Virus record (IMG/VR): IMGVR_UViG_3300030329_000083
Coordinates: 1-64,000 of that record
DNA length: 64,000 nucleotides
Strand: one strand, 5' to 3'
Origin: a virus
Part shown: one piece after another, positions 5,651 through 63,894 of the stretch
Layout: every line of letters begins with the position of its first letter
Position numbering within the stretch: the stretch's first letter is position 1
Made by a program: the position numbers and the translations under genes
The notes under the pieces: generated by a model
What the model was told of the DNA's origin: nothing
Databases searched by the model: none
Seen by the model: the letters and a program-made list of their open reading frames with translations, nothing else

Positions 5651-5654
5651 TAAT

Positions 5655-6916: not shown

Positions 6917-6929
6917 GGAGGGATAAACA

Positions 6930-34784: not shown

Positions 34785-36819
34785 GCCAATTATTACCTAT
34801 TTTTGCTTCAAGCAACATTGGCACATTAACATCAATGTCATAATATGATTGTATGATTACTGATAGCTTGTCGTTAATGTCTTTAATTATACCTAAAACT
34901 GCATCCTCTTCAGCAGGGTGAACATCTAGCACCACAGAATCGTGAACAGTATTTACTAGCAAACTATGCAAACTGTCTATCTCTAAGTGCTTCTCTATCT
35001 CTAAAAGAATAATAGGCACTATGTCTCCTGTTGCAAACCCTTGAACAGGGTAGTTCTTTATCATAGTAAAATGTGAGGGTGTTCCGTTTATCCTTCTCTC
35101 TACATTAGGAAAAGCATACTGTCTACCTGATGGTGTAGTTATCTTACCTAAGTTAACAGCCTCGTTACCTAGCTTCTTGTGCCACTTAGCTATCCCTTTG
35201 TATTTAGTAGTAAAGTGAGTGTAGTACTCAGCCTCTGCCTTGCTCCTGCCGTACCCTGTAGCTCCGTATAACGGTGCAAAGGTATGAGCTTTAGCTTCTT
35301 GTCGTGATGTCGGTTGACCTGCATCAGATATAACTTTAGCTGTATAGCTATGAACATCAAACCCTGTTTCAACTTCTTGCATAGCCGTTTTATCTTGTGA
35401 TAACAAAGCAGCAACCCTAAACTCTAGCTGTGCAAAGTCTGCCTCAAGTATCTTTCCTCCTTCCCATCTAGATACAAACACTCGCTTAACAGGAAACGTA
35501 CCTCCTCTAGGCATATTCTGCATGTTAGGATTTCTACCTGAAAACCTACCTGTAGCTGTAACATGTTGTGTAAGACCTACATGTAAAAACCCATCAGGTT
35601 TAGTAAAATTGTGTATCCCTTCAACAAAACTAGACAGATAACTAGATACAGCACTCTGTCGTTTAAAGTCATTTAAAAACCCATGAGCTACGTCCATTCC
35701 CTTTGTCTTAGCAACAGATATAAGTACATCTAAATAATTCTTGCTTGTTGTAAAACCGTTAGCACTAACCCATGCCTTATTGGGAGGAGCAAAACCTAGT
35801 CCTGCTATAACATTAGTTGCTACAAAGTTGTAGCCTGTAGCATCACAGGCAGTACATTTGGAAGGTCTAGCAAAAGGAGTTCCATCTTTTTTAGTCTTGT
35901 AGACTTTGCCTGTACCTCTGCACTCTTTACATGTATAAGCTTTAGTTCTCATTATCAAGTCACTGTTAGCTTTGTACGCATCTACAAATTCTTTTTTATC
36001 GTTAGTAAATTCAAATAAGTCTACCCACTCTTTCTTGTTGTGTATTTTTCTAGAGTAAATAACCTGACTAACTTGTTCTGGAGAGTTTAAATTAATAGGT
36101 GTGTCTCCCATTAAAGTTCTAACGGTAGAGTTTAGCCTGTCCTCTATCTCAGCTAGTTCTTGTTCAAACTGTTGGCGAACTCCCTCTAGTGCATCTTTAT
36201 CTATCTTAAAACCATTCATATACATCTTAGTTAAAGTCTTACACACTTCATTGCTTATCTTCCTAACTCCAAGTAAAGACTGTGCCTCTGGTGCTTCATA
36301 CTCTTGCTCTAACTTATGATACAGACATTTAGTTATGTTTAAGTCTTGCTCTAAGTAACCTGACAACTCAGCTAATGGTATCTCATTAGTGTTGTATCCG
36401 TCAGCAAAGTATTTCTTTAGAGTGTCTTGCTTCTGGTAGCCTAGTTTATACCTATCTGCACAAGCCTCAAGAGACACAGAGTTCTTTTGTCCTCTTTGTA
36501 ATATATACTCAGCTAACATAGTGTCATAAACAACACCGTCATACTTAAACCCACATGCCCACAACCACTGCAAGTCGTGCTGTAAGTTGTGTCCTATCAG
36601 GAGTGTCGTTTTATCTAGTACAGCCTGTAGCTGTTTCTTCTGAGAACCATCTATGTCTTGCTTCTCATTGTGGTCATAAGTAAACACATGAGGTTTGCTA
36701 CCCTGTGCGTTAAGGACACCCACTTGAGTAAGAGTATTAGACGGTTCAAAAGGGTCAAGGTGATTCTTGCCATCTCGCTTTGTCGTTGTGTTCTCTACGT
36801 CAAGTATTAGCTTCATCAT
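34765..36819 (-). CDS. polA: Family A DNA polymerase with DnaJ-type Zn-finger insertion
   Basis: Exo LDVE/GHN..HD; TATGRFS..NPNMQN; motif A DFAQLEFR; motif B RQEAKAHTFAPLYG; motif C VHDS; CKECRGTG..CTACDATG insert. Confidence 0.95.
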   Translation of the reverse strand: MMKLILDVENTTTKRDGKNHLDPFEPSNTLTQVGVLNAQGSKPHVFTYDHNEKQDIDGSQKKQLQAVLDKTTLLIGHNLQHDLQWLWACGFKYDGVVYDTMLAEYILQRGQKNSVSLEACADRYKLGYQKQDTLKKYFADGYNTNEIPLAELSGYLEQDLNITKCLYHKLEQEYEAPEAQSLLGVRKISNEVCKTLTKMYMNGFKIDKDALEGVRQQFEQELAEIEDRLNSTVRTLMGDTPINLNSPEQVSQVIYSRKIHNKKEWVDLFEFTNDKKEFVDAYKANSDLIMRTKAYTCKECRGTGKVYKTKKDGTPFARPSKCTACDATGYNFVATNVIAGLGFAPPNKAWVSANGFTTSKNYLDVLISVAKTKGMDVAHGFLNDFKRQSAVSSYLSSFVEGIHNFTKPDGFLHVGLTQHVTATGRFSGRNPNMQNMPRGGTFPVKRVFVSRWEGGKILEADFAQLEFRVAALLSQDKTAMQEVETGFDVHSYTAKVISDAGQPTSRQEAKAHTFAPLYGATGYGRSKAEAEYYTHFTTKYKGIAKWHKKLGNEAVNLGKITTPSGRQYAFPNVERRINGTPSHFTMIKNYPVQGFATGDIVPIILLEIEKHLEIDSLHSLLVNTVHDSVVLDVHPAEEDAVLGIIKDINDKLSVIIQSYYDIDVNVPMLLEAKIGNNWLDTKDI

Positions 36820-37334
36820 CCTTGCTCCATTCTTTCATTATAGTGATGCTCTGCATGGCAATTAGCACAGTATACAACGCATTTTCTTAATTCTTCTTTC
36901 AAGGCTTTAAGTGATCCTCCTTTCAGTGTATCTATATTACGTTTTTTATCTTCTTTTATGATATGATGAAAATGTAAGGCATCTGTACATTTTTTATAAC
37001 CACATTTTGAACAGCCAAGTTTACTTTTAACTCTTAATATAAACTTTTTATTTTTTTCAGCCATGCGTTTTTTATTTTTTGCTTTAACTATTCTTTCATT
37101 GGCAAAGGTCTTTGGACTACACCATAATTCATAGGGTTTTGACTTTTCTCCTTTAGGATTTATTCTATAATAATACTGCTTAAATACGTAACCATCCTCT
37201 CTTGTGGTATTTCCGTAAATTCGTTTAGGTAAGCCCAGTAATTCAACCTCTGCATTAGTTATGCGAACATACTTCCGCTTTGCCGTTCTTTTTCTTTCAT
37301 ACTCTTTTCGCTTTTCTTTATCTTTAAAGGGCAT
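36816..37334 (-). CDS. HNH endonuclease
   Basis: CSKCGY..ALHFHH..KCVVYCANCHAEHH. Confidence 0.75.
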   Translation of the reverse strand: MPFKDKEKRKEYERKRTAKRKYVRITNAEVELLGLPKRIYGNTTREDGYVFKQYYYRINPKGEKSKPYELWCSPKTFANERIVKAKNKKRMAEKNKKFILRVKSKLGCSKCGYKKCTDALHFHHIIKEDKKRNIDTLKGGSLKALKEELRKCVVYCANCHAEHHYNERMEQG

Positions 37335-38557
37335 TATGCTGTAAACCTCGCCCTCTCACCGTCAAGCTGAACAGTGACAACACCATGCCATCCTCCTTTA
37401 AGTTTATTCTTAGCTATGACTACATGACGCTCCGTGTCCTCATCCTCCTGTCCTTCTACTGTAGGGTTCTTGCTGATAAGTAACATAAGGTCAGCCTCTG
37501 ATGCCTTACCTGTCTTACTACCTTCCAACATAGATTGATCTACCATAATCTTACCTTCAGCTTCTGCCGAAAGCTGAGACATCCACAGGATAGCACAGTT
37601 ATATTGTTTAGCTATGTTCCTTGCATGTATAGCGGCTTCCTTCAAGTATATATCAGATCGTTCTCCTGTTCTTGGTGCAAACTTATCTCCCATATCTAAC
37701 ACTACAATGTCAGGGTTCATAGCTTTAACTGCAGACTCAACCCATGCCATATCTTTCCCTGTCGTATCTTTAACATATATGTTTTCTCTGACAGGCTTAT
37801 ATCTAGCTGAAGCTAGTGTGACATTCTGACGCACCTCATCCATGCTCATATTAGTTGCTGCTGATAGATACCTAGCTCCAACCCTATCATATGCTTCTTC
37901 ATTACATAAGATAATACACTTAGCTCCTTGCTCTGCAAACCCACCCTTAGATGCTATTAAAGATGCGTGAAAGCTAGTTTTACCTGTGTTGGGTCTTGCT
38001 CCTATAATAACAAGATGTCCACCACTTACACCCTCAACTCTCCTTTGCAAGGTAGGTATGTTAAACTTCCATTGACACTGTATAGCATTAGCTTTCAACA
38101 AAGCATCTATACTCATGTCCTCCCACTCTATATTTAAGTTAGGTAAAAAGTCATCTTGGTATGTACTAAGTAAGTTCCGTAATGGTTCTAATGTACCCTT
38201 GTCACCATTGACATAATCAAAACCTAAGTTAGCTATCTCTTCTCCTACCATCTGTTGAAACAACTTAGAGAAAACTTGCTTAGATATGTCTTGGCACATA
38301 GGTTTCTCATTCTTCAACTTATCAAATAACTGATTGTATGATTCTTTTGTTGCTGTAGTCATTGTGCTATTGTTAGTCATAAATAAACCGTGCAACTCTG
38401 ATACAGATAAATCTTTATCAAACGTACTCATTGCGTAATCTACTGTCTGTTTAATCTTTCGTACATCCTTAGTGAACAACTTGTCAGGACATCTAATACC
38501 TTTATGGTCTTCATAAAAGTCCTTGTTCATCAAGCTACGAATTAATGCTAATTCCAT
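37334..38557 (-). CDS. DnaB-like (SF4) replicative helicase
   Basis: Walker A GARPNTGKT, VVLD, SQLS, EADL, AKNK. Confidence 0.9.
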   Translation of the reverse strand: MELALIRSLMNKDFYEDHKGIRCPDKLFTKDVRKIKQTVDYAMSTFDKDLSVSELHGLFMTNNSTMTTATKESYNQLFDKLKNEKPMCQDISKQVFSKLFQQMVGEEIANLGFDYVNGDKGTLEPLRNLLSTYQDDFLPNLNIEWEDMSIDALLKANAIQCQWKFNIPTLQRRVEGVSGGHLVIIGARPNTGKTSFHASLIASKGGFAEQGAKCIILCNEEAYDRVGARYLSAATNMSMDEVRQNVTLASARYKPVRENIYVKDTTGKDMAWVESAVKAMNPDIVVLDMGDKFAPRTGERSDIYLKEAAIHARNIAKQYNCAILWMSQLSAEAEGKIMVDQSMLEGSKTGKASEADLMLLISKNPTVEGQEDEDTERHVVIAKNKLKGGWHGVVTVQLDGERARFTA

Positions 38558-38991
38558 TATAATCTCTCCTTGTGCTTGTTTAAATACTCTATTGCTTTCT
38601 CTAATGTGCTTACGTTATCATCAAAACCACCCAATGCTCTATTACAACTATGGCACAACCAACCTCTAAATGTGCTAGTGTCGTGACAATGATCTAGCAC
38701 CCACGCTCCATTCCTCTGTCCTCCCTTACCTGCAACCTCTGATTCTCCTCTACAGCACACAGGACATATGTAATCTTTGTCAGGCATACCGTGTTTATCC
38801 CTTAGTGCGTTTCTAACTTTTGTAAGCTCGTTGTTACATTTCTTACACTCAGGTCTTAAAAAGTTTGCACCAGATGATACACTAAATTTATTTAAAGGTA
38901 AAGACTTATTACACTTACTGCATGTTTTTGTTTTACCATCTGAGTTTACTAAATCATAATTCTCAAGTTCAAATAAATCAATCTGTTCCAT
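38557..38991 (-). CDS. Endonuclease VII-family (homing-type) nuclease
   Basis: CPVC..LDHCH..FRGWLCHSCNRALG..AIEYL, N-terminal CSKC/CKKC. Confidence 0.8.
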   Translation of the reverse strand: MEQIDLFELENYDLVNSDGKTKTCSKCNKSLPLNKFSVSSGANFLRPECKKCNNELTKVRNALRDKHGMPDKDYICPVCCRGESEVAGKGGQRNGAWVLDHCHDTSTFRGWLCHSCNRALGGFDDNVSTLEKAIEYLNKHKERL

Positions 38992-43772: not shown

Positions 43773-43939
43773 GCTACCTCTTCCTCGATTGATTGTACTG
43801 TAAGTTCTACCCTTCCATCTGCTTCCAAGATTGTTTCAACATATCTTTGTTCTAAATCGTAGTTATCTAAGTTATAAAATACCAATGGCATATTAGGTTC
43901 AAACTTCTGTAGTCTGTCTATTAAATCTTTAACTTTCAT
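43769..43939 (-). CDS. Hypothetical early protein (MKVKDLIDRL type)
   Basis: Start placed at the ATGA overlap with the DUF932 stop; AGGAG RBS. Confidence 0.55.
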   Translation of the reverse strand: MKVKDLIDRLQKFEPNMPLVFYNLDNYDLEQRYVETILEADGRVELTVQSIEEEVA

Positions 43940-44784
43940 GCTACTAACTCCTTGAAAATTGGAGATGAGATCCATTGTGCTACCTCATTTTCTCGCTTCC
44001 ACATTGACTCAGATGCAGTATCGTAGCCAGTGTTCCTAAGAGCAAAACCATTTCTCTCATCTGCGTATGATGAATAATTAGTCAAAGCACTATACAAGGC
44101 AAATACATTAGCACCTCTGGTGATTCGCTCCTGATTGTATAGCTTGAGCATCTTCTCAGCTTTACGATCTGACTTAATCATCTTCTCTAGTACCTCTTTG
44201 ACATTAACGTAGGTCAACGTAGTATCTGCCCATTTCTGCAAAATGCCCATCTGCTGAGTAAAATCCTCTTTAGACCTATACAGTTCATCTATGAAAGATT
44301 CTAAGCTAAACCCTGATGTATTCTTTCGCTTAATGGTATTGTATTCACCAGTAACCATGCCATTAGTACAATAAAAATCTATTGCACCAAATAAGGTAAT
44401 GTTACTACAAGATCCATCAACACCATGCAAAGCTATAATTCTTTGAGCTACGTCAGTTTGATGTTTGCTAGTCGTTATCTTATGTGTCACATTTGGCAAA
44501 CGCATATCCATCATAGTCCAAGCATTATTCCTAGCAGTTCGCCAAGTCAACGTAGCACCATCTAAGTCATGGTCACTAAGTTCAGCTACAACTGTATCTC
44601 TGACTTGTCTGTAGAAATCAATGTGACTAGCACATTTAAAGTCTTTACCTACAATTCCTATCACCTCATCAGTATTATTGTTAATGACATACTTACTCAT
44701 GTCAAATCTGGTAGGCTCAAAAGAAACGTCAAATGCTATTTCTTCTGGCATCTTAGTTATTGGTCTTTCACTATATATTGTCAT
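43936..44784 (-). CDS. DUF932 family protein
   Basis: IGIVGKDFK, LHGVDGS, FYCTNGMV, ALYSALTNYSS; start MTIYSE after AGGAG. Confidence 0.75.
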   Translation of the reverse strand: MTIYSERPITKMPEEIAFDVSFEPTRFDMSKYVINNNTDEVIGIVGKDFKCASHIDFYRQVRDTVVAELSDHDLDGATLTWRTARNNAWTMMDMRLPNVTHKITTSKHQTDVAQRIIALHGVDGSCSNITLFGAIDFYCTNGMVTGEYNTIKRKNTSGFSLESFIDELYRSKEDFTQQMGILQKWADTTLTYVNVKEVLEKMIKSDRKAEKMLKLYNQERITRGANVFALYSALTNYSSYADERNGFALRNTGYDTASESMWKRENEVAQWISSPIFKELVA

Positions 44785-44815
44785 AAATTGATTCTCCTTT
44801 TTGTTTGTGTCACCC

Positions 44816-44843
44816 ATTTTATAGATGATTCGTTTTTTGTCAA
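44816..44843 (-). promoter_or_regulatory. sigma70-type promoter with GANTC in the spacer
   Basis: TTGACA-16-TAAAAT on the minus strand; TGATTCG at 44826-44832. Confidence 0.65.
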
Positions 44844-44878
44844 GTTAATAATAAAATCGTTTAAAATCAAATACTTAG

Positions 44879-44995
44879 CATCCCATCCCATTACTTTTCC
44901 CATCCCATCTAAAACCTCCCATCCCATCCCATGATGACCGTAACTCATCCGATCCCATCTAAAACCTCCCATCCCATCCCATCTTGATGACCGTA
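44879..44995. repeat. (ATCCC)n array including a 50-bp-period direct repeat
   Basis: atcccatctaaaacctcccatcccatcccat(ctt)gatgaccgta at 44902-44942 and 44952-44995, plus flanking atccc units. Confidence 0.9.
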
Positions 44996-45064
44996 GATTC
45001 TGATTTAACTTTTTGAAAAGCTAAACCAGAATCTCAAGTGTCAAAATTTTGACCCTAGATAAAT

Positions 45065-45763
45065 CTATTTTGTTTTTTCTACAATGATATTATTCTCTAG
45101 CTTGTCTGAATGTTTGTAACATCTCAAACAATCTTTACATTTTTGTCCTGTACAGTTTTGAATCTCTTTAAAGTTATCACCATTAACATTATTAAAAACT
45201 TTGTCGAAATGTTTAGGTATTTTAGTAATAACTTTGTCTACTTTAGTATTAGAAAAAACAATAATAAGGTTTTTAGGTTTTTCTCTTTTGTCGAAATATC
45301 TTTTTATTATATCTGTTCTTTTAGTCCATAAAGCAAAAGTACAGTGTGGATTGTATTCAGCTATTCTACAATAATTCTCAATCATATTATATTTAGGAAA
45401 AGTTTTTATTGTGACTCCGTTATCATCTACTAATTCAGTCAATAGTTCCCCATGATGATTAAAACGAAAAAAGGATTGCAAGAAAAAGAATTGTTTAACC
45501 TCTAAGTCACTCAATAGTTTTTCTGATAGTATTTCATTTTTATCTAATGATAACGGTAAGTTTTTCATATAGCTATCCATTGATTTATGGGAATAACAGA
45601 CTCCACAAATATCTACAATTTTTCCAGCTAGTTCATTTTTCTTTTTTGCTTCAATATACCTATCATAGCAAAACTTATTCTTTTTAGTATTGTTTCCTAT
45701 AGCATTAAAAGACTCTAGTTTTCCTCTAAGTTTAGAAACGTGTCCTATGTTATCTAATGGCAT
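45065..45763 (-). CDS. GP88-like Cys-rich (putative Fe-S) early protein
   Basis: C..CGVCY, FFRFNHHGE, ALWTKR, CTGQKCKDCLRCY. Confidence 0.6.
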   Translation of the reverse strand: MPLDNIGHVSKLRGKLESFNAIGNNTKKNKFCYDRYIEAKKKNELAGKIVDICGVCYSHKSMDSYMKNLPLSLDKNEILSEKLLSDLEVKQFFFLQSFFRFNHHGELLTELVDDNGVTIKTFPKYNMIENYCRIAEYNPHCTFALWTKRTDIIKRYFDKREKPKNLIIVFSNTKVDKVITKIPKHFDKVFNNVNGDNFKEIQNCTGQKCKDCLRCYKHSDKLENNIIVEKTK

Positions 45764-45829
45764 AGTGCGACTCCTATTAAAATTATTATTGTAAATATTA
45801 CTACTATTAGATCTGGATGAAAAAACATA

Positions 45830-46027
45830 TTAAAGACTCCTTGTGTTTTTTCTTTTAGCTCTAAAACTAACGTGATCTTTTTTAATAGTCTTAATATATT
45901 CTATTAATTGCTTTTGCTTTTCTGGAGTCTGATTCCTAATGAATCGCTTGACGTTTATTTTTGCCTTGCGAATCTTAGTATCTGAGATTCCCCAATCTTT
46001 TTTGTATAAAAAACTTGTAGCACTCAT
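45830..46027 (-). CDS. Small basic early protein
   Basis: 65 aa, K/R-rich. Confidence 0.55.
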   Translation of the reverse strand: MSATSFLYKKDWGISDTKIRKAKINVKRFIRNQTPEKQKQLIEYIKTIKKDHVSFRAKRKNTRSL

Positions 46028-46028
46028 T

Positions 46029-46229
46029 TTAGAGTCCCTTCTTAATTTCAGTTAATGCTTTAATTAAACTATCTAAGCTATTAAACTTTATTATTATATC
46101 ACCATTACCTTGTGAAATATTTAATCCTATTTCTTGCACTATTATTTTTTCATCTTCGTTTTTGTGTTGAACTATAGAAATAGAATTACCTTTTTCATTA
46201 AGTAAAATCTGATTAAAATTAATATTCAT
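46029..46229 (-). CDS. Small early protein
   Basis: 66 aa, AAGGAGTC RBS. Confidence 0.6.
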   Translation of the reverse strand: MNINFNQILLNEKGNSISIVQHKNEDEKIIVQEIGLNISQGNGDIIIKFNSLDSLIKALTEIKKGL

Positions 46230-46301
46230 TTGTGACTCCTTGTTTAGTTTATTAATTTAAAAATGGAGTCTAGCCAATTAAAGCTAAACTCCTAATTTAA
46301 A

Positions 46302-46634
46302 TTAACTAGCTAGACGTTGAGTCAATTTGACTCCGTTAGCTTTTCTTTTATGCCTTACGATTCCGTTTTGGTTAATCCTAGAATAACCATTGCGATCATA
46401 TGCTTGAAAGCATGAATAAGAATTGCCAAAATTTAATCTTAAAAGAGGATCTCCAGATTTTCCACCATTACCTAACCTAACGAAAAAACCTTTCTCTTGT
46501 GGATTCTTCCTATGGATAACTGGCTTGTAGCCTTTACGCCATAAATCAAAAGCCGTTATTAAAACTCTAACTGGTGTTAAACCACCCTTAATAGTTTGAC
46601 CTCTAGCTATATTATTTAAATTAAATGTAATCAT
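46302..46634 (-). CDS. Basic early protein
   Basis: 110 aa, AGGAGTC RBS. Confidence 0.6.
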   Translation of the reverse strand: MITFNLNNIARGQTIKGGLTPVRVLITAFDLWRKGYKPVIHRKNPQEKGFFVRLGNGGKSGDPLLRLNFGNSYSCFQAYDRNGYSRINQNGIVRHKRKANGVKLTQRLAS

Positions 46635-46725
46635 TTTTGACTCCTATTGTCATTTTGGTTTGTTGATATTCTTTAGTGAATATCCACAAGCGGACTCTTA
46701 TATTTGAATCTGCTTATAGGATTCA

Positions 46726-46875
46726 CTATGCTTTTGCCTTTTCATCAATTTTATTGATTCCGTAAGTTAACAATTTAATAGGATCAATTTTAATAAATCC
46801 TCTAGACAATAACATTAATGTAATATCTTTTGCATTTGATCGACTAGTAAATGTATTTCTTTTAGTTCTTTTCAT
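46726..46875 (-). CDS. First early ORF (49 aa, not in ORF track)
   Basis: MKRTKRNTFTSRS...KAKA*, AGGA upstream. Confidence 0.45.
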   Translation of the reverse strand: MKRTKRNTFTSRSNAKDITLMLLSRGFIKIDPIKLLTYGINKIDEKAKA

Positions 46876-46933
46876 TTCGTTTTTTTTCCTAATTTGATTC
46901 GGTAATTAAAAGAATCGATTTTTGTATTCTTAG

Positions 46934-46963
46934 ATTTTACATTAAAAATTTAAAAAAGTACAA
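46934..46963 (-). promoter_or_regulatory. Candidate leftward early promoter
   Basis: TTGTAC-18-TAAAAT on the minus strand with AT-rich upstream element. Confidence 0.4.
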
Positions 46964-46983
46964 TAAATAAAAAATTAATTTTA

Positions 46984-47084
46984 GTTACAAATGTAACAAT
47001 AAAAACCGTACATAAAACCTTTACCGTTGGTATCAGTTACAAATGTAACCATTATTGACGGTTATATATTTTACTAACTGATAC
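46984..47084. promoter_or_regulatory. Paired palindromic operator-like sites
   Basis: GTTACAAATGTAAC at 46984-46997 and 47036-47049; inverted 10-mer gtatcagtta (47030-47039) / taactgatac (47075-47084). Confidence 0.6.
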
Positions 47085-47392
47085 TTTATCAGATTGCTAA
47101 ACTTTATAAATCAATAATTTAGCTATTATTATTTATTATCTATTTAGATTCCTGTTTTAGAATTATTCTAAATGCTTTTATTATTTGAGTTTAAAAATTT
47201 CTTAAAAAAATCCATCCCATAAACGTGACCGTGCAAGAGCCACGTGGGGGTATAGGGATATATATGTATGAATATACACACGGAAGAGGTTTTTTGCTTG
47301 TTAACCACTTTTTTCCTTGTAAACACAGCGGTCCTCTAGTTGTGACCTTAATAGGAATACTAATAATAACTTATAGTGTGACAATATGTCGC

Positions 47393-47421
47393 TTGACAAC
47401 TTTATGATTCTATGGTATAAC
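47393..47421 (+). promoter_or_regulatory. Rightward sigma70 promoter (lysis/packaging arm)
   Basis: TTGACA-17-TATAAC with extended -10 TG; imperfect palindrome gtgacaatatgtcgc abuts the -35. Confidence 0.7.
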
Positions 47422-47444
47422 ATAGTTAAAGCTATTAAGTTAAG

Positions 47445-47513
47445 ACTATAAAGTTAAAACTATCTTATAGTACTACTTTTTTAATAGTCTTTACTATAAA
47501 GTTAAAACTATCT
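47445..47513. repeat. 21-bp direct repeat
   Basis: actataaagttaaaactatct at 47445-47465 and 47493-47513. Confidence 0.85.
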
Positions 47514-47563
47514 CTTGTGTTTTTTGCATTAATATGTTATTATAAAGCAAATAATGTTTGACA

Positions 47564-51025: not shown

Positions 51026-51391
51026 GTGAAACAACTAACAGAAAAACAACAAACCTTTTTAAAAGTCTTATTTGATGAGGCAGGTGGTGATGTATTGTTA
51101 GCTAAAAGACTAGCAGGTTATTCAGATGCAACAGCTACAAACGAAATAGTTAAATCTCTCAGAGAAGAAATTGAAGACGCTACAAAACAATATATGGCTA
51201 GGATTGCTCCTCGTGCTGCTTTTGCTATGGGTAACGCTTTAGTTGATCCTACTGAGTTAGGTATAAGAGATAAAATGACTGCAGCTAAAGACTTACTCGA
51301 CAGGGCAGGTTTTATTAAAACTGAAAAAGTTAATGTAGAATCTACAGGAGGTATTTTTGTGTTACCTGCTAAAGAAGGAAAAAATGAGTAA
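51026..51391 (+). CDS. Putative terminase small subunit
   Basis: LTEKQQ.FL..A.RLAGYS HTH-like start, AAKDLLDRAG; shortly upstream of TerL. Confidence 0.5.
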   Translation: MKQLTEKQQTFLKVLFDEAGGDVLLAKRLAGYSDATATNEIVKSLREEIEDATKQYMARIAPRAAFAMGNALVDPTELGIRDKMTAAKDLLDRAGFIKTEKVNVESTGGIFVLPAKEGKNE

Positions 51392-53338: not shown

Positions 53339-55453
53339 ATGGCAACAGAAGAAGAACTAAACTTTGATACAGATGAAGTGTCTGTTATAGAGGATGGAGA
53401 TAAAGCATTACGTGATCCTTCCTCTATAGAAGCTTTTATAATGGAAAGGTTTACCAGAGCAGAAGATGCTAGAAAAACAGATGAAGATCGTTGGACTAAA
53501 GCTTATAGAAACTATAGAGGTTTATATGGATCAGATGTTCAGTTTACGGAAGCAGAAAAGTCTAGGGTATTTATAAAAGTAACTAAAACTAAAACTCTTG
53601 CAGCATATGGTCAGATAATTGATGTGCTTTTTGGTAATAATACGTTTCCACTATCTGTAAATCCTACAAGACTACCAGACGGTGTAGCAGAAGCAGTACA
53701 CATTAACACTGATCCTAATGCAGATCAAGCAACAGAACAGTTAAAAGCTGTTTCTGAAGATAAGCCTTCTCAACCCTATCTTTTTGGTCCTGACACAGAG
53801 TTAAAAAAGGGTGAAACTATAATAGATCTGCAAGAAAGGCTTGGTTCGTTAAAAAATAAACTAGAGCCTGTCTCAGATAAAATTATAGAAGGGGAAGGCA
53901 CAACAGGTACGACTGTTACTTTTCACCCTGCGTTAATTGCAGCTAAAAAAATGCAAAAGAAGATACACGATCAGTTGGAAGAGTCTGGTGCTAATAAGCA
54001 TTTAAGAAACACAGCTTTTGAAATGTCTCTATTTGGTACAGGGGTTATGAAAGGTCCATTTGCTATGGACAAAGAATATCCTAATTGGAGTGAAGAAGGT
54101 GAATATGATCCCTTAATTAAAACTGTACCGTGTACCAATCATGTATCTATATGGGATTTTTATCCTGACCCTGATGCTAAAAACATGGATGAGGCTGAGT
54201 ATGTAGTGGAAAGACACAAGATGTCTAAAATGCAACTCAGGGCATTAAAGATGCGTCCATACTTTAGAACAGAATCTATAGACAATGCTATTGAACTGGG
54301 AGCATCTTACACTAGAAAGCACTGGGAAGATGATATGACTGACTACGTTACATCACAAGCAGTAGAAAGATATGAAGTACTAGAATTTTGGGGATACGTT
54401 GATGCTGAAAAACTACAACTAAGCGGTCTTGATATTCCTAAAGAATTAAAAGATATGGAGCAACTAAATGTCAATATATGGATATGTAACGGAGAGATAT
54501 TACGCTTGGTTCTTAATCCATTTAAACCAGTACGGATACCCTACTATGCCGTACCTTATGAACTTAATCCCTATAGTTTCTTTGGTATAGGCATAGCTGA
54601 AAACATGGATGATACGCAAACCTTAATGAATGGGTTTATGCGTATGGCTATTGACAATGCAGCTTTGAGTGGTAACCTTATTATTGAAGTAGATGAAACT
54701 AACCTAGTTCCAGGACAAGATCTATCAGTATATCCAGGAAAAGTGTTTAGAAGACAAGGTGGCGCTCCAGGACAGGCTATATTTGGAACAAAGTTTCCGA
54801 ATGTTGCAGGAGAAAACATACAACTGTTTGACAAAGCAAGAACATTAGCAGACGAGAGTACAGGCTTTCCTAGTTTTGCACACGGACAAACAGGTGTACA
54901 AGGTGTAGGTAGAACTGCATCAGGTATATCTATGCTTATGTCAGCAGCAAATGGGTCTATCAGAAATGTTGTAAAGAATGTAGATGACTATTTGCTTGGT
55001 CCTCTAGGTAAAGCTTTCTTTAGTTTTAATATGCAGTTTGACTTTGACACTGAAATAAAAGGTGATCTAGAAGTTAAAGCTCAAGGCACAGAAAGCTTAA
55101 TGGCTAATGAAGTACGTAGTCAAAGGCTCATGCAATTCTTACAAACAGCATCTAACCCTGCTCTTGCTCCTTTTGCTAAGATGGATTACATTATAAGAGA
55201 GATAGCTAAGAGTATGGACTTAGACCCTGATAAAGTAACCAATAGCTTACAAGATGCAACAATACAAGCTGAAATACTTAAAGGTTTTCAAGCTCCTGCT
55301 CCTGCTGCACCTCCTGCTGCTGCTCCAACTGAAGCTCCACCTGCTCCTGCAGGAGGCGGTGTACAAGACACTACTGGTGCAGGGGGAGGAACGATAGGTA
55401 CAGGTGTTGCACCGTTACCGCAAGAAGAAGGCTTTACAGGTAATGTCCAATAA
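53339..55453 (+). CDS. Portal protein, copy B (full length)
   Basis: 704 aa directly after TerL; collinear with 1-1584. Confidence 0.85.
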   Translation: MATEEELNFDTDEVSVIEDGDKALRDPSSIEAFIMERFTRAEDARKTDEDRWTKAYRNYRGLYGSDVQFTEAEKSRVFIKVTKTKTLAAYGQIIDVLFGNNTFPLSVNPTRLPDGVAEAVHINTDPNADQATEQLKAVSEDKPSQPYLFGPDTELKKGETIIDLQERLGSLKNKLEPVSDKIIEGEGTTGTTVTFHPALIAAKKMQKKIHDQLEESGANKHLRNTAFEMSLFGTGVMKGPFAMDKEYPNWSEEGEYDPLIKTVPCTNHVSIWDFYPDPDAKNMDEAEYVVERHKMSKMQLRALKMRPYFRTESIDNAIELGASYTRKHWEDDMTDYVTSQAVERYEVLEFWGYVDAEKLQLSGLDIPKELKDMEQLNVNIWICNGEILRLVLNPFKPVRIPYYAVPYELNPYSFFGIGIAENMDDTQTLMNGFMRMAIDNAALSGNLIIEVDETNLVPGQDLSVYPGKVFRRQGGAPGQAIFGTKFPNVAGENIQLFDKARTLADESTGFPSFAHGQTGVQGVGRTASGISMLMSAANGSIRNVVKNVDDYLLGPLGKAFFSFNMQFDFDTEIKGDLEVKAQGTESLMANEVRSQRLMQFLQTASNPALAPFAKMDYIIREIAKSMDLDPDKVTNSLQDATIQAEILKGFQAPAPAAPPAAAPTEAPPAPAGGGVQDTTGAGGGTIGTGVAPLPQEEGFTGNVQ

Positions 55454-55661
55454 CCTAAAGCCTTTAGTTAATAATAAAGAACTTTATGATTCTTTTAAAA
55501 ATGAAATAAACACACAAATACTAATGTATAGTAGGTCATTAGAACAGGCTAGTACATTAGTAGATGTACACAGGCTACAAGGTAGCATCAATGCGTTACG
55601 AAGATTACTACAACTGAAAGAACAAGTTAATGGCAGTGAACCCTCAAACACAACCAAATGA
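55443..55661 (+). CDS. Small conserved head-module protein, copy B
   Basis: MSNNLKPLVNN.. homolog of 1577-1774. Confidence 0.7.
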   Translation: MSNNLKPLVNNKELYDSFKNEINTQILMYSRSLEQASTLVDVHRLQGSINALRRLLQLKEQVNGSEPSNTTK

Positions 55662-58600
55662 CCTAAATACCCAAACTGAAGAGGCTATGGGATTAAGGGG
55701 TATGGCTGAAAAAACTATAGGTAAAAAAGCTACTGGTGTAGCTGACTTTGTACCTATTGTAGGGGATGTATTAGCAGCAGGTGATGTTGTTGAAAGTGCT
55801 AAAAAAGGTGACGTACTAGGAACAGCAGTTAATACTGCAGCAATGGCATTAGGTGTAGTTCCTGTAGTAGGAGACTTAGCAGGTAAAGGGCTAAAAGCAG
55901 GATTAAAAGCGGCTCGTACAGGTAAATCTCCTGTAAGAAAGCTTTTTGATAAGCTCCCAAAAAAAGAAAAAGATGAGCTTCCTGCACAACCAGACGAAGA
56001 CAGTTTATGGGGGTATCACGGTACAGCTAGAGAAAGAGGACCAGATGAACCTTTTTTTGATATTGGCTTTGCTAGGAAGCAGGATCAGTTTTTAGGTGAA
56101 GGTTACTATTTTACTATAGACCCTAAAGTAGCAGAAGAATATGCTAACATGAGAGCATTAGATCTTGGAGGATCAGCAAAAACAGCTAGAAATATAGAAG
56201 GTCAAGAAGCTATAAAGCTAATGAATGACCCTAAAGCTACTCATGTGGGATCAGCGTTTACTACAAATCCTAGTAAGGCAATGATAACCGTAGATAAAGC
56301 AGGTAACTATGTAACTCCAAGTAGTGTTATGGGAGGTACAGACATATATGGAAACCCTATATCTAAAGGTCAGAACATAGCTAGGTTTAATTTATCTAAT
56401 TTAGAAAAGCCTTTTTTGGTTAAGACAGCAGCAGATAGAAAAAGACTAAAAGAAAATTTTCAGGAAATAAAAGACGAAGGCTATGACTCTGTTTTGTTTG
56501 CTGACTTTAAAGACCGATCAAAACAAATTATGGTGTTTCCTGAACATATCGGAAAAGTTACAGGAGATATTGCTAAAGACGTTGGTGAAGTGGGTACACC
56601 CAAAGTACCAAGAGTAACTACACCTAAAATATCAAATATTGACTATCAAAAAAAGATGGCAGAGTTTGATAAGGTAGATAATGTTGACGATTGGCAAACA
56701 AATGTAGAAAAATACGTTGAGGAATCTAGGGATGTAAATCCTACTATACGTACCCCTGAATTAGAAAATTCTGCAAAAGATTTACTTGATGGTAAAATTA
56801 CTAGAGAACAACACTTAGATAATATTGATAAATATAAACCTGTTGATCCTTGGGATGCTCTACCAAGAGAGCCATCAAGTAAAGCTACAGTATTTTCTTT
56901 AAAATCAAACCAAATAGAAAAAGGTAAATTTATATTACCTAAGGAAGCTACTAAAAATCTAGGTGTTTCTAAGTCCTCTTTAAAAATAGGAGATAAATTT
57001 AACGGTAGACTAGACATACCTGCGTATAATAAATATGACACTTGGATTGTAGCAGGTACATCTACGGCTGAAAAGGGTGTAACGCACTATGCAAAAGCTA
57101 TACACTATAAAGGTGTAGGAGATAAGCCTGTAAGATTTGCTGCCTCTCAAGAAATGTCAAAAAGAATTGGAACAGGTGTAGAGGGTAAAACTGGGTATGC
57201 TACAGTATCTGGTGAAATAAAAAATCTCAATGTAGAAGAAATAAGAGAATTAGCAACTAAAGTTTTAAATGATCCTGAGTGGACACAAGTGGGATTTGAC
57301 CCTAGAAGACAGGGTGGTTTCTATGTGCGTAACCAAAAAAATAAACATGTACCTGTTCGTGAAGCGGATGAGGTTATACAAATAGGTCCACTAGTATTAG
57401 CTAAAAATGCTACACTGGATTTAACGCACAAAGGTTTTAACAAAGGTGGGATAGTACCAATGGAATTACAACAACAAACACAAATGGCTTTCATGCAAGA
57501 AGGAGGAGATGTTAATAGAACAGGTGCTATGTTTGTACCTGAGTCTCCTGAAGAAGAAAAAGAGAAGCCTAAACAATTAGGTACAGTTGAAGAACAAGCA
57601 GGTTTAGTTCAAACAGAAGAAGAAGATCCACAAATGGATGTAGCTTTTATGCAAGAGGGTGGTTTAACTGATGATGGAGCTACTATTGATCCTGTAAGTG
57701 GTAACGAAGTTCCTACAGGAAGCATGGATCAAGAAGTAAGAGATGACGTTCCTGCTATGTTAAGTGAAGGTGAATACGTTGTACCTGCTGACGTTGTAAG
57801 ATTTCACGGTGTAAAACTATTTGAAGACCTTAGAAAGGAAGCTAAAAGAGGCATGGCTAAAATGGAAAAGGATGGCAGGGTAGGTGGCGAACCTATGTCT
57901 GAAGAAGACTTTGAAGGAGAAGAACTACCTTTTGACGTATCAGAGTTACAAACTGTAGGCGCAGATCGTGTAAGAGGTATGGCTGAAGGTGGTGAAGTAG
58001 AAGGTGCTATAGGTCCAGAAATAGTTTCTACTGGTTCTCAAGTGTACGGTGAAGGAGCTAGGCTTAGACAAAATACAGGTTTTGAAATGAAGAAATACTA
58101 CGAGCCTTCTACAGGTAGAGTTATAGTTTTTCCTTTCTTTAATGGTAAACCTATGAGTGTTATTCCTGATGGTTTTGAGCCTTACTCTGGTCAAGATAAA
58201 AAACCTGCTCAACCACAACAAACAGGTGGAGGTAGGAGCGATCCTCCATATAAACCTTTTAAGCCTAATGAGCCTAGAAAGTTTGGCTTTGGTTCGTGGT
58301 CTGCTCAAGATTATGTAGATGCAACAGACAGTACTAAGAGTGGTCTAGGAAAAGTTGCTAGTGCGCTTATTCCTTTTATCGGTATGAGCCACGCTTCAGG
58401 TAGAAAATATATTGAAGATGTAATGGATATGGAAAAAAACCCTGCCCAACTTAACCCTGCAACAGGGCAAAAGATAACTGACTTAGACAGAATAGCTATG
58501 GTAAGGTATTATACTAATCCACCACCTCCAAGTGTAATGCAAAGACTAGTTAGGTTTGTAAGTGGAAAGCAAGACCTTACTGAAGATGATTCTTATGGTT

Positions 58601-61059
58601 TATCTGATTTGTTTGACTTTAGTGGAGAGTTAAACTACGAGGCTGTAGATGGCACTATAAGGAAAGGAACTTTTGAAGAGTTACTTGGGAAGGTAGGAGA
58701 AGACGGTATGTTACCTCCTCAAACTCCTGAAGAACAAGGATTAGACATTCTATATGGCGATAGAGGCTTTACTCCTGAAGACATAGAAAGGGATAGACAA
58801 GCACTATATGGAGATACTACTACTGCTCGTAGAAATACTGGCACTATGGATGCTATAATGGCAGGAGTTAATAGAGATAAAAGTAGTGACACTGTTGGAC
58901 AACAATATGCTAAGTCGTTTTTTGGAGCAACTGATGCAATGAGAGGTTTAGTTGGTGATCCTACAGTATTTAATAATCCAGGAAATATTGAAGTAGGACA
59001 AAATTTTGCAGGTGAAATTGGGTCATATAATAACGGTAGGTTTGCAGAATTTGCTACACCTCAACTTGGTATTAGAGCATTAGCGTTAGACCTTAAAACT
59101 AAAGCTAACAGATACAATGGAGATGTAGAGCAAATGCTCTTAGACTATCTTGGTGGTGGTAGAGAAGGCGAAATAGAGCAAAGATATGAACAAGCTTCTG
59201 TAGAAAATAGAGATCCAAGAGGCTATGTAAATAGAGCTATAGAAGCGGTAGGAAACAGAAACGTAGATGTAAATGATATAGATCAAATGGTTTCTCTTGT
59301 TTCTAGCGTTATAGACTCTGAAAACACTAAAGTTACTGCTAGACATTATTTAGAGACACTAGGTCCAGAAGTTATTAAAGAAGGCATAGAGTTGGCTGAC
59401 CGACAGTACGACACAAGCCGAAGACTTGATTTTCCAACAGTTGAAACTCCTCCTTCTAGACCTTCTTTATCTGGAGCAGCTTTTGCAGGAGAAGGACCAG
59501 AACTATCCCCAACACCTAGTTTTGTAGCAGGGATGGATGCAGTTCCACAAGCAGGAGAAGCGATTGCTAATCTAAATGATCCATACACACCTCCATCTGG
59601 AGGAACTGGTGTTCAGGATGTAGCACCTCCTTATAGGGCTACTGGTTCTGGTGTTCAGGATGTAGCACCTCCTTATAGGGCTACTGGTTCTGGTGTTCAG
59701 GATGTAACTCCACAAGGAGAAGGGCGGTTAGGATTTGCACCTGCGGATTTTGGTGGACCTTCATCTAGAAGAGGTGGAGTAGGTAGATTTGGACCTGTAG
59801 AGTCCGAGTTTGATGATCCTGACAACATACTCTACGGAGATGACACAGATGGTGTTCCACTGGATGTAGGTGAGACTATAGGCAGACCTGAGATTGTAAA
59901 CAGAGTAGCTACGTTTGGTGGTCAACCTCCACGAAATTTATCAAACAGAGCAATGGCTCGTAAAGATGTAACGAGAGCGCAAGGAGTTCCACGCATAGGC
60001 ACTGAAGGTGGTTTTAGACCAGACGCTGCAACTACAACAGCACCAACAGTAGGTGAACCTCCAAGATTAAGCTATGGTGATTTTATGGAAGGAAGTCCAA
60101 AAGAATTTGGTGGTGAAATAACAGGTCAAGAGTCTGACAGATTTATAAGTCGCAGGGGTAGCGTACCGTTTGACGTAGGTGAAACTATAGATGCAAATAT
60201 GCGGAGTGATACACCAGATATATCTAGGTTTGAGCCACTAGGACAAACACAATTACCTTCATCTAGAAGAGGTGGAGCAGGACGTTTTCCTAATGTAGAC
60301 ACTCAAACTGAACAAGCGTTTAGTAGGTCTATTAGCCCTACTGTAGAGAAGGCAAGAAGAGATAAGCTAGTGTCTGCTCCTACTGAAGACGATAAAAAAG
60401 TTAAAGTAACAAGCAAAAAAGAAGAGCCTAGCTTTTGGGATAAGTATAGCAGAAAAGGCAGTGCAGGTGGTTTTGGTGATGAGTGGTCTGCTAGAGATTT
60501 CTCTGAAGTAGGACACATGAATCTTCAAGGTCTAGGCAAAGACAAAGATAAATCGGCTAAAGCCTTTAACGCAGGAAAGCTTGGAGGAGGAGAAGTTCAC
60601 TACTTTAGGTACAACACAGGTGGTGGAAATAATACTTATGTAAGCGAAGCTCAACTAAGAGACTATCTTAACAAACCTGCTAACTATGTATTAACAGCTA
60701 AAGATATAGCATCTTTTGATCCTACTACAGCAAAGAAAACGGTTCTTCCAAAGAAAGGTCTTTTAGGAGAAGAGAGGTATACGTATAAACAACCTGAAGT
60801 TACCACTACTCCTACTAAAGAAAAGACTTCTCAACAGCCAGTTTCAAACAATAATAAAAATAAGAAGAAAGACACTTATGATGCAGGAAAAGAAATGGCT
60901 AAGTTTAGAGCAGAACAAAAAGCTAGAGAAGATGCGCAGAAAAAGCAAAAAGATAAAAATGTTTATACAGGCGGTGGTGCAGGATCAGGCAGTGGTATTG
61001 CATTAAAGTCTGGAGGATTGGTGAAGAGGAGAGCTACTAAAAAGAAGAAGAAATCGTAA
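55630..61059 (+). CDS. Polyvalent virion protein, copy B: pre-toxin-like + ART-like + unknown + conserved core + NNPGNI muramidase-like domain
   Basis: DFVPIVGD..LGVVPVVGD; YHGT..LGEGYYFT..AEEYA..GYDSV; shared DPVSGNEVP core; NNPGNI..RFAEF..GIRAL. Confidence 0.65.
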   Translation: MAVNPQTQPNDLNTQTEEAMGLRGMAEKTIGKKATGVADFVPIVGDVLAAGDVVESAKKGDVLGTAVNTAAMALGVVPVVGDLAGKGLKAGLKAARTGKSPVRKLFDKLPKKEKDELPAQPDEDSLWGYHGTARERGPDEPFFDIGFARKQDQFLGEGYYFTIDPKVAEEYANMRALDLGGSAKTARNIEGQEAIKLMNDPKATHVGSAFTTNPSKAMITVDKAGNYVTPSSVMGGTDIYGNPISKGQNIARFNLSNLEKPFLVKTAADRKRLKENFQEIKDEGYDSVLFADFKDRSKQIMVFPEHIGKVTGDIAKDVGEVGTPKVPRVTTPKISNIDYQKKMAEFDKVDNVDDWQTNVEKYVEESRDVNPTIRTPELENSAKDLLDGKITREQHLDNIDKYKPVDPWDALPREPSSKATVFSLKSNQIEKGKFILPKEATKNLGVSKSSLKIGDKFNGRLDIPAYNKYDTWIVAGTSTAEKGVTHYAKAIHYKGVGDKPVRFAASQEMSKRIGTGVEGKTGYATVSGEIKNLNVEEIRELATKVLNDPEWTQVGFDPRRQGGFYVRNQKNKHVPVREADEVIQIGPLVLAKNATLDLTHKGFNKGGIVPMELQQQTQMAFMQEGGDVNRTGAMFVPESPEEEKEKPKQLGTVEEQAGLVQTEEEDPQMDVAFMQEGGLTDDGATIDPVSGNEVPTGSMDQEVRDDVPAMLSEGEYVVPADVVRFHGVKLFEDLRKEAKRGMAKMEKDGRVGGEPMSEEDFEGEELPFDVSELQTVGADRVRGMAEGGEVEGAIGPEIVSTGSQVYGEGARLRQNTGFEMKKYYEPSTGRVIVFPFFNGKPMSVIPDGFEPYSGQDKKPAQPQQTGGGRSDPPYKPFKPNEPRKFGFGSWSAQDYVDATDSTKSGLGKVASALIPFIGMSHASGRKYIEDVMDMEKNPAQLNPATGQKITDLDRIAMVRYYTNPPPPSVMQRLVRFVSGKQDLTEDDSYGLSDLFDFSGELNYEAVDGTIRKGTFEELLGKVGEDGMLPPQTPEEQGLDILYGDRGFTPEDIERDRQALYGDTTTARRNTGTMDAIMAGVNRDKSSDTVGQQYAKSFFGATDAMRGLVGDPTVFNNPGNIEVGQNFAGEIGSYNNGRFAEFATPQLGIRALALDLKTKANRYNGDVEQMLLDYLGGGREGEIEQRYEQASVENRDPRGYVNRAIEAVGNRNVDVNDIDQMVSLVSSVIDSENTKVTARHYLETLGPEVIKEGIELADRQYDTSRRLDFPTVETPPSRPSLSGAAFAGEGPELSPTPSFVAGMDAVPQAGEAIANLNDPYTPPSGGTGVQDVAPPYRATGSGVQDVAPPYRATGSGVQDVTPQGEGRLGFAPADFGGPSSRRGGVGRFGPVESEFDDPDNILYGDDTDGVPLDVGETIGRPEIVNRVATFGGQPPRNLSNRAMARKDVTRAQGVPRIGTEGGFRPDAATTTAPTVGEPPRLSYGDFMEGSPKEFGGEITGQESDRFISRRGSVPFDVGETIDANMRSDTPDISRFEPLGQTQLPSSRRGGAGRFPNVDTQTEQAFSRSISPTVEKARRDKLVSAPTEDDKKVKVTSKKEEPSFWDKYSRKGSAGGFGDEWSARDFSEVGHMNLQGLGKDKDKSAKAFNAGKLGGGEVHYFRYNTGGGNNTYVSEAQLRDYLNKPANYVLTAKDIASFDPTTAKKTVLPKKGLLGEERYTYKQPEVTTTPTKEKTSQQPVSNNNKNKKKDTYDAGKEMAKFRAEQKAREDAQKKQKDKNVYTGGGAGSGSGIALKSGGLVKRRATKKKKKS
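59606..59707 (+). repeat. 39-bp coding tandem repeat (GVQDVAPPYRATGS)
   Basis: Two full and one partial unit. Confidence 0.85.
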
Positions 61060-61128
61060 AGTAGTAGTGAGTACTACCTTATGGCTACTTGACCACTGCG
61101 GTCAACCCCAACAAAAGGAGTAATTAAA

Positions 61129-62001: not shown

Positions 62002-62008
62002 AAAACTA

Positions 62009-62036
62009 TTGACAATGTGCAATTTATCACTATAAC
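62009..62036 (+). promoter_or_regulatory. sigma70-type capsid promoter, copy B
   Basis: TTGACA-16-TATAAC. Confidence 0.7.
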
Positions 62037-62040
62037 TACT

Positions 62041-62206
62041 AGCATACGTCTGATTATGGATGTATGCTTTTCAAGCAAACGATACCCTAAAGCTTACCAA
62101 AGCCGTATGAGCCTAAAGCTTGAAGTGTAGCGCAACACTTAAATCTTTACACCTTATTAACGCTTTGCCCTTACTGAGTATGTTTAGCTTATAATCATAA
62201 GCCTAA
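62041..62206 (+). ncRNA. Structured capsid leader RNA, copy B (putative)
   Basis: Same stems as 5655-5820 with compensatory substitutions. Confidence 0.65.
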
Positions 62207-62229
62207 CCTATTTATAAGGAGGATTTATT

Positions 62230-63291: not shown

Positions 63292-63303
63292 GGGAGATAA
63301 CTA

Positions 63304-63834: not shown

Positions 63835-63845
63835 ATTTACTAATG

Positions 63846-63873
63846 GGGAGGGCATTAAGTTGCCCTCTCTTTT
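63846..63873 (+). terminator. Rho-independent terminator, copy B
   Basis: gagggca-ttaagt-tgccctc followed by a T-tract. Confidence 0.75.
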
Positions 63874-63894
63874 ATAACATAATAAGGATTAATA

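Follow-up and report, generated by a model that had tools for sequence, protein, structure and literature searches.

Why should a marine phage genome that is poor in the pentanucleotide GANTC, the word methylated by the alphaproteobacterial enzyme CcrM, crowd these sites into one short block? The DNA analysed here, called the window throughout, is the initial 64 kb (64,000 nucleotides) of the 73.6-kb IMG/VR virus record IMGVR_UViG_3300030329_000083 (to position 73624), and 28 GANTC sites lie between its positions 44996 and 47151, 23 of them in a 1318-bp core at 45599-46916. This island, with a G+C content of 0.27, is the one such cluster in a genome unit of apparently ~53.9 kb. An initial annotation, made from the letters alone, had reported the same two counts, and these are exact, with a site present at every position that it named; in the first kilobase of the window, where it had given about three sites, three were counted. 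On the evidence set out below, we see an even chance that the island is a selectively maintained target patch for the phage's own GANTC-specific N6-adenine methyltransferase, flagging or controlling early DNA.

The first step is to establish that the island is not a product of composition. Local Markov models of order 0, 1 and 2 predict 5.1, 5.2 and 5.3 sites for 44996-47151, close to the figure of about six from which the initial annotation had argued for enrichment, and 3.2, 3.4 and 3.7 for the core; the order-3 expectations of 10.5 and 8.4 are inflated by the island sites themselves. Outside 44-48 kb the window averages 1.63 sites per kb, with a maximum of 5, and holds 98 sites against 147-207 expected, while the window as a whole holds 134 against 190.6 +/- 12.7 in dinucleotide shuffles, all 100 of which contained at least 134. 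The background outside the island is about 2-fold depleted, and the island rises ~9-fold above it (23 vs 2.6 sites per 1.5 kb). The enrichment also survives a codon-aware null: across 5000 synonymous-codon shuffles of the five genes, sites internal to coding sequences numbered 4.33 +/- 1.63 (maximum 11) against the 16 observed, the total for the region came to 11.3 +/- 1.6 against 23, and neither observed value was reached once.

Among 135 strand-symmetrised patterns of the form XYNZW, scanned over one genome unit as a look-elsewhere control, none clusters locally to such an extreme as GANTC (log10 p -15.2), the runners-up being A+T-rich words within the same A+T-rich stretch, which is the most A+T-rich, lowest-G+C part of the genome (0.27 vs 0.38). 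An unbiased k-mer search returns GACTC/GAGTC as the top 5-mer (13 vs 1.1 expected) and GGAGTC as the top 6-mer (9 vs 0.18 expected, with 4 in the other 60 kb). Variants in public metagenome contigs touch a single base of a GANTC site (44999) and are too few for a test of constraint. The enrichment of the island is real, non-random and under selection.

What is being selected can be read from the placement of the sites. Those internal to coding sequences fall in codon phase 2 (eight), phase 3 (seven) and phase 1 (one), and since phases 2 and 3 predominate, the island is no by-product of Asp/Glu-Ser dipeptides. Two other candidate islands, in stretches L142 (6060-6310) and L151, were rejected as coding artefacts; there a 790-aa protein with an acidic Gly/Glu/Ser repeat, its Glu-Ser pairs encoded GAG-TCT, yields 11 GAGTC within 500 bp. 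Tallying the flanks of 153 distinct sites from nine related blocks reveals a ~2-fold symmetric G/C preference at -1/+5 (G before, C after) and a favoured G/C centre, with no longer word. Spacing is irregular, with medians that range from 37 to 127 bp over seven islands, whose 228 sites show no helical period. Judged by this tally, the selected word is the bare 5-mer GANTC, and a bare 5-mer at irregular spacing is characteristic of a target of the methylase or restriction type and not of an operator. The initial annotation had placed sites in codons, in AGGAGTC ribosome-binding sites and in hairpin stems, and all three placements recur in our count: besides the 16 sites within coding sequence, three ribosome-binding sites read AGGAGTC (45769, 46234 and 46639) and one site lies in a hairpin stem. 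GACTC also occurs within 12 nt of a fourth start codon, and a perfect dyad, GAGTCAATTTGACTC, at 46319-46333 is built from two GANTC sites. Sites thus sit wherever they are tolerable, be it within codons in two phases, at ribosome-binding sites, in the stems of hairpins or in non-coding DNA.

A methylase that could use such a target is encoded in the same genome. At 28675-29205, on the minus strand, lies the gene of a 176-aa gamma-class N6-adenine DNA methyltransferase (FYPTP, EPCAGDG, NPPW), whose motifs follow one another in the order X (DFYPTP), I (S-adenosylmethionine binding, EPCAGDG) and IV (ITNPPW) seen in a family of ~180-aa enzymes. The protein matches phrog_799 and PADLOC MTase_II; a sequence search of the PDB gave no match. 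Homologues are present in 42 cultured-phage records, 38 of which are named for alphaproteobacterial hosts, and in more than 587 IMG/VR stretches. Over residues 1-171 it is 48.9% identical to DSS3P8 AMO44073, which appears in the Fig. 3 alignment of putative and confirmed enzymes of "CcrM-like specificity" in Decewicz et al. 2017 (PMC5537653), and it is 52% identical to a 178-aa open reading frame (ORF) of Paracoccus genomes. Three 179-aa Paracoccus aminophilus prophage enzymes with an NPPW motif have been shown by protection assays to methylate GANTC (PMC3925955, PMC5537653). Direct comparison with phiLM21 p027, a confirmed GANTC enzyme, found no significant similarity, with only the NPP motif shared. 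Weighing the family homology against the dissimilarity to phiLM21 p027, we take it as probable that the window enzyme is specific for GANTC.

The window enzyme resembles the known small CcrM-like methyltransferases of phages and prophages (P. aminophilus JCM 7686 and the phiLM21 p027 group; PMC3925955, PMC5537653) in size class, in its NPPW motif and in its location in a replication/nucleotide module. The available text of the papers on those enzymes leaves their role open and reports no cis-acting site cluster, and phiLM21, unlike the window, lacks an island over the initial 50 kb scanned of a 50.8-kb record (53 sites, maximum 6 per kb). In Caulobacter phage RW (L181, MK929790), a homologous methyltransferase ORF at 58593-59123 lies between two ORFs annotated as large terminase subunit, and the terminase gene there looks as if it had been split by an inserted methylase-carrying element.

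To relate the enzyme to the island, we compared 16 whole or near-whole phage records, with Caulobacter phage RW scanned for sites over 50 of its 62 kb. All seven records that carry both the methyltransferase and a gene of the GP88 superfamily (GP88 or DUF7227) have an island (G000, G006, G011, G015, G016, G017 and Roseobacter phage CRP-6), and in each of them the island is single and overlaps the GP88-superfamily gene. No island is found in the four records with GP88 only (CRP-2, HMO-2011, G007 and G008), in the four with the methyltransferase only (G012, G013, Microcystis phage Mel-JY03 and Caulobacter phage RW), or in the one with neither gene (G001). Among the phages examined, islands therefore occur only in methyltransferase carriers.

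Closer relatives of the window were collected with two anchors. The DUF932 gene next to the island identified 22 loci, one of them without upstream DNA; the island is present at the three whose proteins are 95-97% identical, with 23-29 sites in 2.4 kb, and the 18 more distant metagenomic loci together hold 14 upstream sites against 118 expected. With the 232-aa GP88-like gene of the island as anchor, 25 loci were found, and the island is present in all eight that are at least 80% identical (16-27 sites per ~2.2 kb vs 5-6 expected) and in none of the other 17 (34-66% identical, G+C ~0.3, 0-8 sites). Four blocks that align at 77-83% nucleotide identity contain 29, 23, 28 and 26 sites, of which 12 are common to all and 5-7 are private to each block, with private sites also in a stretch that no longer aligns. 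By this comparison, the density of sites is conserved and their positions only partly so, individual sites turning over.

The initial annotation had proposed a look at other HMO-2011-type genomes, and the feature is not general to them. The island is kept in relatives at the identity just given, and the whole records of the clade members G006 and G011 have one island each (19 and 24 sites per 1.5 kb vs a background of 2.7). It is not found in the records of CRP-2, G001, G007 and G008, or within the examined 1-12 kb and 45-55.3 kb of HMO-2011 (22 of 55 kb). The first 4 kb of CRP-2 (L064, 1-4000), a homologous early region that includes the GP88 gene gp03, contain no GANTC at all against a genome mean of 1.9 per kb; the CRP-2 early region is a mirror image of the window island. 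The cultured phage CRP-6 has 69 sites, of which the final 2.5 kb account for 38; this stretch comprises gp66-gp69, including the GP88 gene gp68 (7e-42), and terminal non-coding DNA, and the other 42 kb average ~0.7 per kb. G015 has, at 29071-29192 (L108 150-275), an iteron-like array of nine GAATC-centred GAACGAATCAnGAA units spaced alternately by 11 and 18 bp, in a 0.6-kb non-coding stretch inside its island and 3 kb from its terminase genes. Of the 15 further whole or partial records examined, all but G014 are, like the window genome, GANTC-poor overall.

These comparisons bear on the view that the island serves no function of its own and arose from the recent acquisition of an A+T-rich cassette, from GANTC avoidance relaxed under self-methylation and from chance or hitch-hiking. 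The cassette is indeed mosaic, being missing from relatives with a DUF932 identity of 52-84%, and differs in composition from the genome (0.27 vs 0.38 G+C); phage early regions are hypervariable, and some dense clusters elsewhere, those of L142 and L151, are coding artefacts. Relaxed avoidance, however, would restore ~2.4 sites per kb rather than the 13-17 per kb found, no composition exceeds ~4 per kb, and the observed counts exceed the synonymous-codon null in 5000 of 5000 shuffles. Density has been kept despite turnover with the rest of the genome still depleted, and islands recur in unrelated phages over a G+C range of 0.27-0.54, those of CRP-6 and G016/G017 being near the genome mean and not A+T-rich. 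We regard an island without function as very improbable.

A target patch for the phage's own methylase accommodates these observations as follows. The patch takes in the divergent control region together with the opening ~2 kb of the leftward early operon. Virion DNA would enter the cell with the patch fully N6-adenine-methylated (m6A), which would place two methyl groups in every ~55-80 bp, and newly replicated copies would be hemi- or unmethylated until the phage enzyme acts, so that the patch would distinguish parental from progeny DNA. Altered protein binding and easier strand opening could then control early transcription, the start of replication, or both, from the adjacent control region. 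That methylase-free relatives avoid GANTC on early DNA, where carriers saturate it, indicates that something in the infected cell reads the word there, and the patch looks like a hitherto unrecognised target of a widespread class of phage methylases. The initial annotation had proposed that this is first-entering, early DNA bearing methyl marks installed by the host. A promoter-proximal early position of the block is supported, and a connection with methylation is plausible. Installation of the marks by the host is not required, since the phage encodes a methyltransferase of a family with published GANTC specificity.

Several points weigh against the target patch. The GANTC specificity of the enzyme is drawn from its family membership, and the sole confirmed enzyme compared directly, phiLM21 p027, shares only NPP with it. 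Phages that carry the methyltransferase remain 2- to 4-fold short of GANTC in the rest of their genomes, and the enzyme therefore does not simply lift avoidance; four of the carrying records, moreover, have no island. Islands outside the HMO-2011-type clade were found by searching around methyltransferase genes, which biases the co-occurrence count, but not the position of the islands over the GP88 gene. G000, G006 and G011 are one clade and G016 and G017 may be another, so that the positives represent ~3-4 independent origins, not seven. The overlap with GP88 may itself reflect early-region location only, because GP88 genes mark early regions in many phages. L142 and L151 show that GANTC clusters can arise trivially, an origin that the frame test excludes for the window island. 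For the window phage, the role of its methyltransferase at the patch is a proposal argued from sequence, from which no reader protein, promoter dependence or origin emerged.

The same switch of early regions, from near-total GANTC avoidance without a methyltransferase to saturation with one, would also be expected if the island served defence or counter-defence, with dense m6A shielding the early genes from a GANTC-directed nuclease or from a MucR-type protein that silences A+T-rich foreign DNA, or with the sites soaking up host CcrM or GcrA. MucR and GANTC methylation are reported to interact in Alphaproteobacteria (bioRxiv 10.1101/091785), and GANTC depletion in pelagiphages has been discussed as a possible trace of restriction (PMC9516812). 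Protection from a nuclease, however, explains why sites are tolerated, not why they accumulate; the islands of CRP-6 and G016/G017 are not the A+T-rich DNA on which such a silencer would act, and no island protein matches an anti-defence family. A defensive role is, in our judgement, improbable.

If the marks were instead those of the host, methylation by CcrM could recruit GcrA-sigma70 RNA polymerase and thereby drive early transcription or transcription-coupled DNA entry, as the initial annotation had suggested. A subset of sigma70 promoters is activated by GcrA, which binds GANTC in its methylated form (PMC4647560, PMC3667746). The island adjoins promoter-like sites (consensus matches) in the divergent region, and the known hosts of the phage group and of the methyltransferase family are Alphaproteobacteria (for the family, by the 38 of 42 cultured-phage records), so that motif and host class are those of the CcrM/GcrA-dependent promoters of Caulobacter, at which methylation-dependent transcription is established (PMC4647560). 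The preferred GcrA form is nevertheless rarer in the window than chance would have it. Caulobacter GcrA prefers YGAKTCK, and GGAGTCT, which ranks 30th of 32, abolished the methylation-dependent gain in binding (PMC4647560); YGAKTCK, on either strand, is present at two of the 28 window sites against 7.1 expected, and the commonest window form, GGAGTCW, includes the low-ranked GGAGTCT. Over seven islands the preferred form accounts for 73 of 228 sites against ~57, and in the G015 island for 24 against 13 expected, most of these in the repeat array. Unlike the sites of the Caulobacter promoters, those of the window are not concentrated at promoters, most lying inside genes and spread over 2 kb, and relatives that have only host CcrM to rely on lack the island, with GANTC avoided in the region. 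GcrA-driven transcription is thus an unlikely explanation, and this part of the initial annotation is not supported.

The layout of the island bears on whether it could be, or flank, an origin of replication. It covers the left half of a divergent non-coding control region (46876-47557) and the first five leftward ORFs, which encode 49, 110, 66, 65 and 232 aa. The control region contains dyads, direct repeats and promoter-like sites in both directions; the 15-bp dyad AGTTACAAATGTAAC occurs twice (46983-47000 and 47035-47052) and a 21-nt direct repeat in two exact copies (47445-47465 and 47493-47513), and both are candidate operators. On the minus strand follow the 49-aa ORF (46726-46875), with one site inside and five more flanking it, the 110-aa ORF (46302-46634), with four internal sites and the AGGAGTC ribosome-binding site at 46639, and a terminator-like hairpin (46265-46292) whose stem includes a GANTC site; two relatives have one in each arm of this hairpin. 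Next are the 66-aa ORF (46029-46229), preceded by AGGAGTC at 46234, the ORF of a basic 65-aa protein (45830-46027), with six sites in 198 bp, and the gene of a cysteine-rich 232-aa GP88-like protein (45065-45763), with four internal sites and AGGAGTC at 45769. Scans of Pfam, PHROGs, NCBIfam and PADLOC gave nothing significant for the four small proteins of 49, 65, 66 and 110 aa.

The distal edge of the island is occupied by CCCATCC-rich tandem repeats of 41-50 nt (44866-44990), which separate the GP88-like gene from the DUF932 promoter. Their copy number varies, a contig skipping exactly one 50-nt unit (44901 to 44952) in three of four public runs. The island stops just short of a strong sigma-70-like promoter match on the minus strand (TTGACA-16-TAAAAT, 11/12; 44816-44843), which precedes the DUF932 gene (43936-44817, minus strand), the conserved neighbour used above as an anchor, and marks the end of the A+T-rich cassette.

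Methylation of the Dam/SeqA type controls the E. coli oriC and the P1 oriR, and the island could correspondingly be or flank an origin whose firing or sequestration depends on methylation state, with m6A and low G+C easing unwinding. Like the GATC clusters of oriC and oriR, it is a local excess of methylase sites beside an A+T-rich, repeat-bearing control region; it is the stretch of lowest G+C, the cumulative GC skew has its minimum at 46-48 kb, and the G015 island holds the iteron-like array of nine GAATC-centred repeats. Phage GANTC methyltransferase genes have, in addition, been placed at replication modules and a role in replication proposed for them (PMC5537653). Against an origin, the skew minimum falls where gene orientation switches, each island holds 0-2 DnaA-box-like words, near the share expected by length, and the sites, instead of forming a compact 250-bp origin, are strung out along 1.3-4 kb of coding DNA. 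The window patch is ten times longer than oriC or oriR, is mostly coding and shows neither their helical phasing (228 sites, seven islands) nor an enrichment of DnaA boxes, and the G+C of the CRP-6 and G016/G017 islands is near the genome mean. CtrA boxes are not meaningfully enriched, although both TTAA-N7-TTAA words fall in the island region against ~0.6 estimated from A+T content (0.1 by length), and family scans of the window proteins found no SeqA-like protein. An origin is the sort of explanation that we would entertain but do not expect.

Packaging provides a further precedent, since phage P1 encodes a Dam-type methylase and has a cluster of its sites at pac, seven in ~160 bp inside a packaging gene. 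By analogy, the island could be a pac region at which terminase cutting is gated by the phage enzyme; in both cases sites for a phage-encoded adenine methylase are clustered, and their methylation state is a possible switch. The CRP-6 and G015 islands lie directly upstream of an operon that runs into terminase genes, and the RW methyltransferase ORF sits between the two terminase-annotated ORFs. The placement in the window is not that of P1, however: the small-terminase-like (terS-like) gene (51026-51391) is 4 kb away, across the divergent region and in the opposite, rightward operon, and the window has 23-28 sites over 1.3-2.2 kb of early genes. We know of no pac site made up of 25-50 sites over 2-4 kb, as the islands would require, and we find a packaging role hard to credit.

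The GP88-like gene of the window island is of interest in its own right. Its 232-aa product scores 23.6 bits against Pfam GP88 (PF17338), just under the cut-off of 24.4, and has an Atlas score of 0.97 to GP88 clusters, in which 27 of its 30 matches lie. A profile search collected 1679 relatives, and alignment with bona fide GP88/DUF7227 members keeps C53, C56, N76, R100, P163, N165, S171 and C209; no literature was found on either PF17338 or DUF7227. An AF2 model built from 106 homologues (pLDDT 96.4) had no Foldseek match at E <= 0.001, and the ten best matches in VIA-align were all radical-SAM enzymes (QueE, viperin, spore photoproduct lyase, PFL activase, lipoyl synthase and others), at a weak Z of 4.5-5.3. 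The conserved cysteines (C32, C53-x2-C56 and C204-x4-C209-x2-C212-x2-C215) do not form the canonical radical-SAM CX3CX2C motif, and their pattern suggests metal or iron-sulfur sites. GP88 is a typical first early gene in many phages, among them pelagiphages, HMO-2011 and mycobacteriophages, the last providing 238 of 268 GP88 tblastn hits; in the records of HMO-2011 and CRP-2 the gene comes first or third, and in several podovirus-sized pelagiphages it is found 0.5-1.5 kb in from the left record end.

The genome in which the island sits is that of an HMO-2011-type phage. Among cultured phages, nucleotide matches are confined to the HMO-2011-type Roseobacter phages CRP-2, -13, -207 and -603 and to CRP-6, and gene content and order are those of CRP-2 and HMO-2011 (integrase, primase, DnaB-like helicase, family-A polymerase, ribonucleotide reductase and convergent structural genes). 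PHROG and Pfam scans divide it into a structural module on the plus strand (1-28.7 kb), a leftward module on the minus strand (28.7-46.9 kb) and a rightward module from 47.56 kb (small genes, endolysin-like peptidase, terminase and portal). From its promoter end, the leftward module contains the small early genes, DUF932, integrase, primase, DnaB-like helicase, family-A polymerase, a Cas4-like exonuclease, MazG, ribonucleotide reductase and the small methyltransferase. Interleaved with the helicase, primase and polymerase genes are HNH and endonuclease-VII-like genes (36816-37334 and 38557-38991), which are possibly homing-type insertions. The portal-to-capsid genes are present twice (31-7,000 and 53,339-64,000; portals 84% identical), and the contig, although its record is labelled 'linear, 100% complete', therefore appears to run ~1.4x round the ~53.9-kb unit, with two strains joined. 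The giant protein downstream differs between the two copies (958 vs 1809 aa).

A single saturated island on a depleted background has, as far as we can tell, not been described. Searches for GANTC and phage, together with the accessible text of methylase and marine methylome papers, turned up no GANTC island or enrichment of this kind in phages. Genome-wide GANTC depletion is reported for pelagiphage clades (PMC9516812), which the window genome resembles in being GANTC-poor overall; the available text of that study reports depletion only and describes no such island. The present finding refines that picture, as depletion and local saturation in one genome mean that whole-genome motif counts hide the functional part. 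CcrM-like phage methylases were demonstrated experimentally a decade ago and are widespread, while their substrate and purpose stayed open, and the island offers a concrete cis target for them. The presence of an island in a cultured pair, Roseobacter phage CRP-6 on strain FZCC0042, makes its methylome, transcription timing and mutants directly examinable.

We tentatively extend this to a broader proposal, which we think possible but would sooner doubt than assert. Alphaproteobacterial phages that gain a GANTC methylase would flip their GP88-type early region from total avoidance to saturation, and so acquire a phage-autonomous, kilobase-scale m6A flag. By this flag, parental genomes that have been injected would be distinguished from progeny or competitor DNA lacking methylation, and the timing of early expression or replication would be set. 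As their cis target, the island would then account for the frequency of CcrM-mimicking methylases among these phages, and the radical-SAM-like GP88 protein may be a third part of the module.

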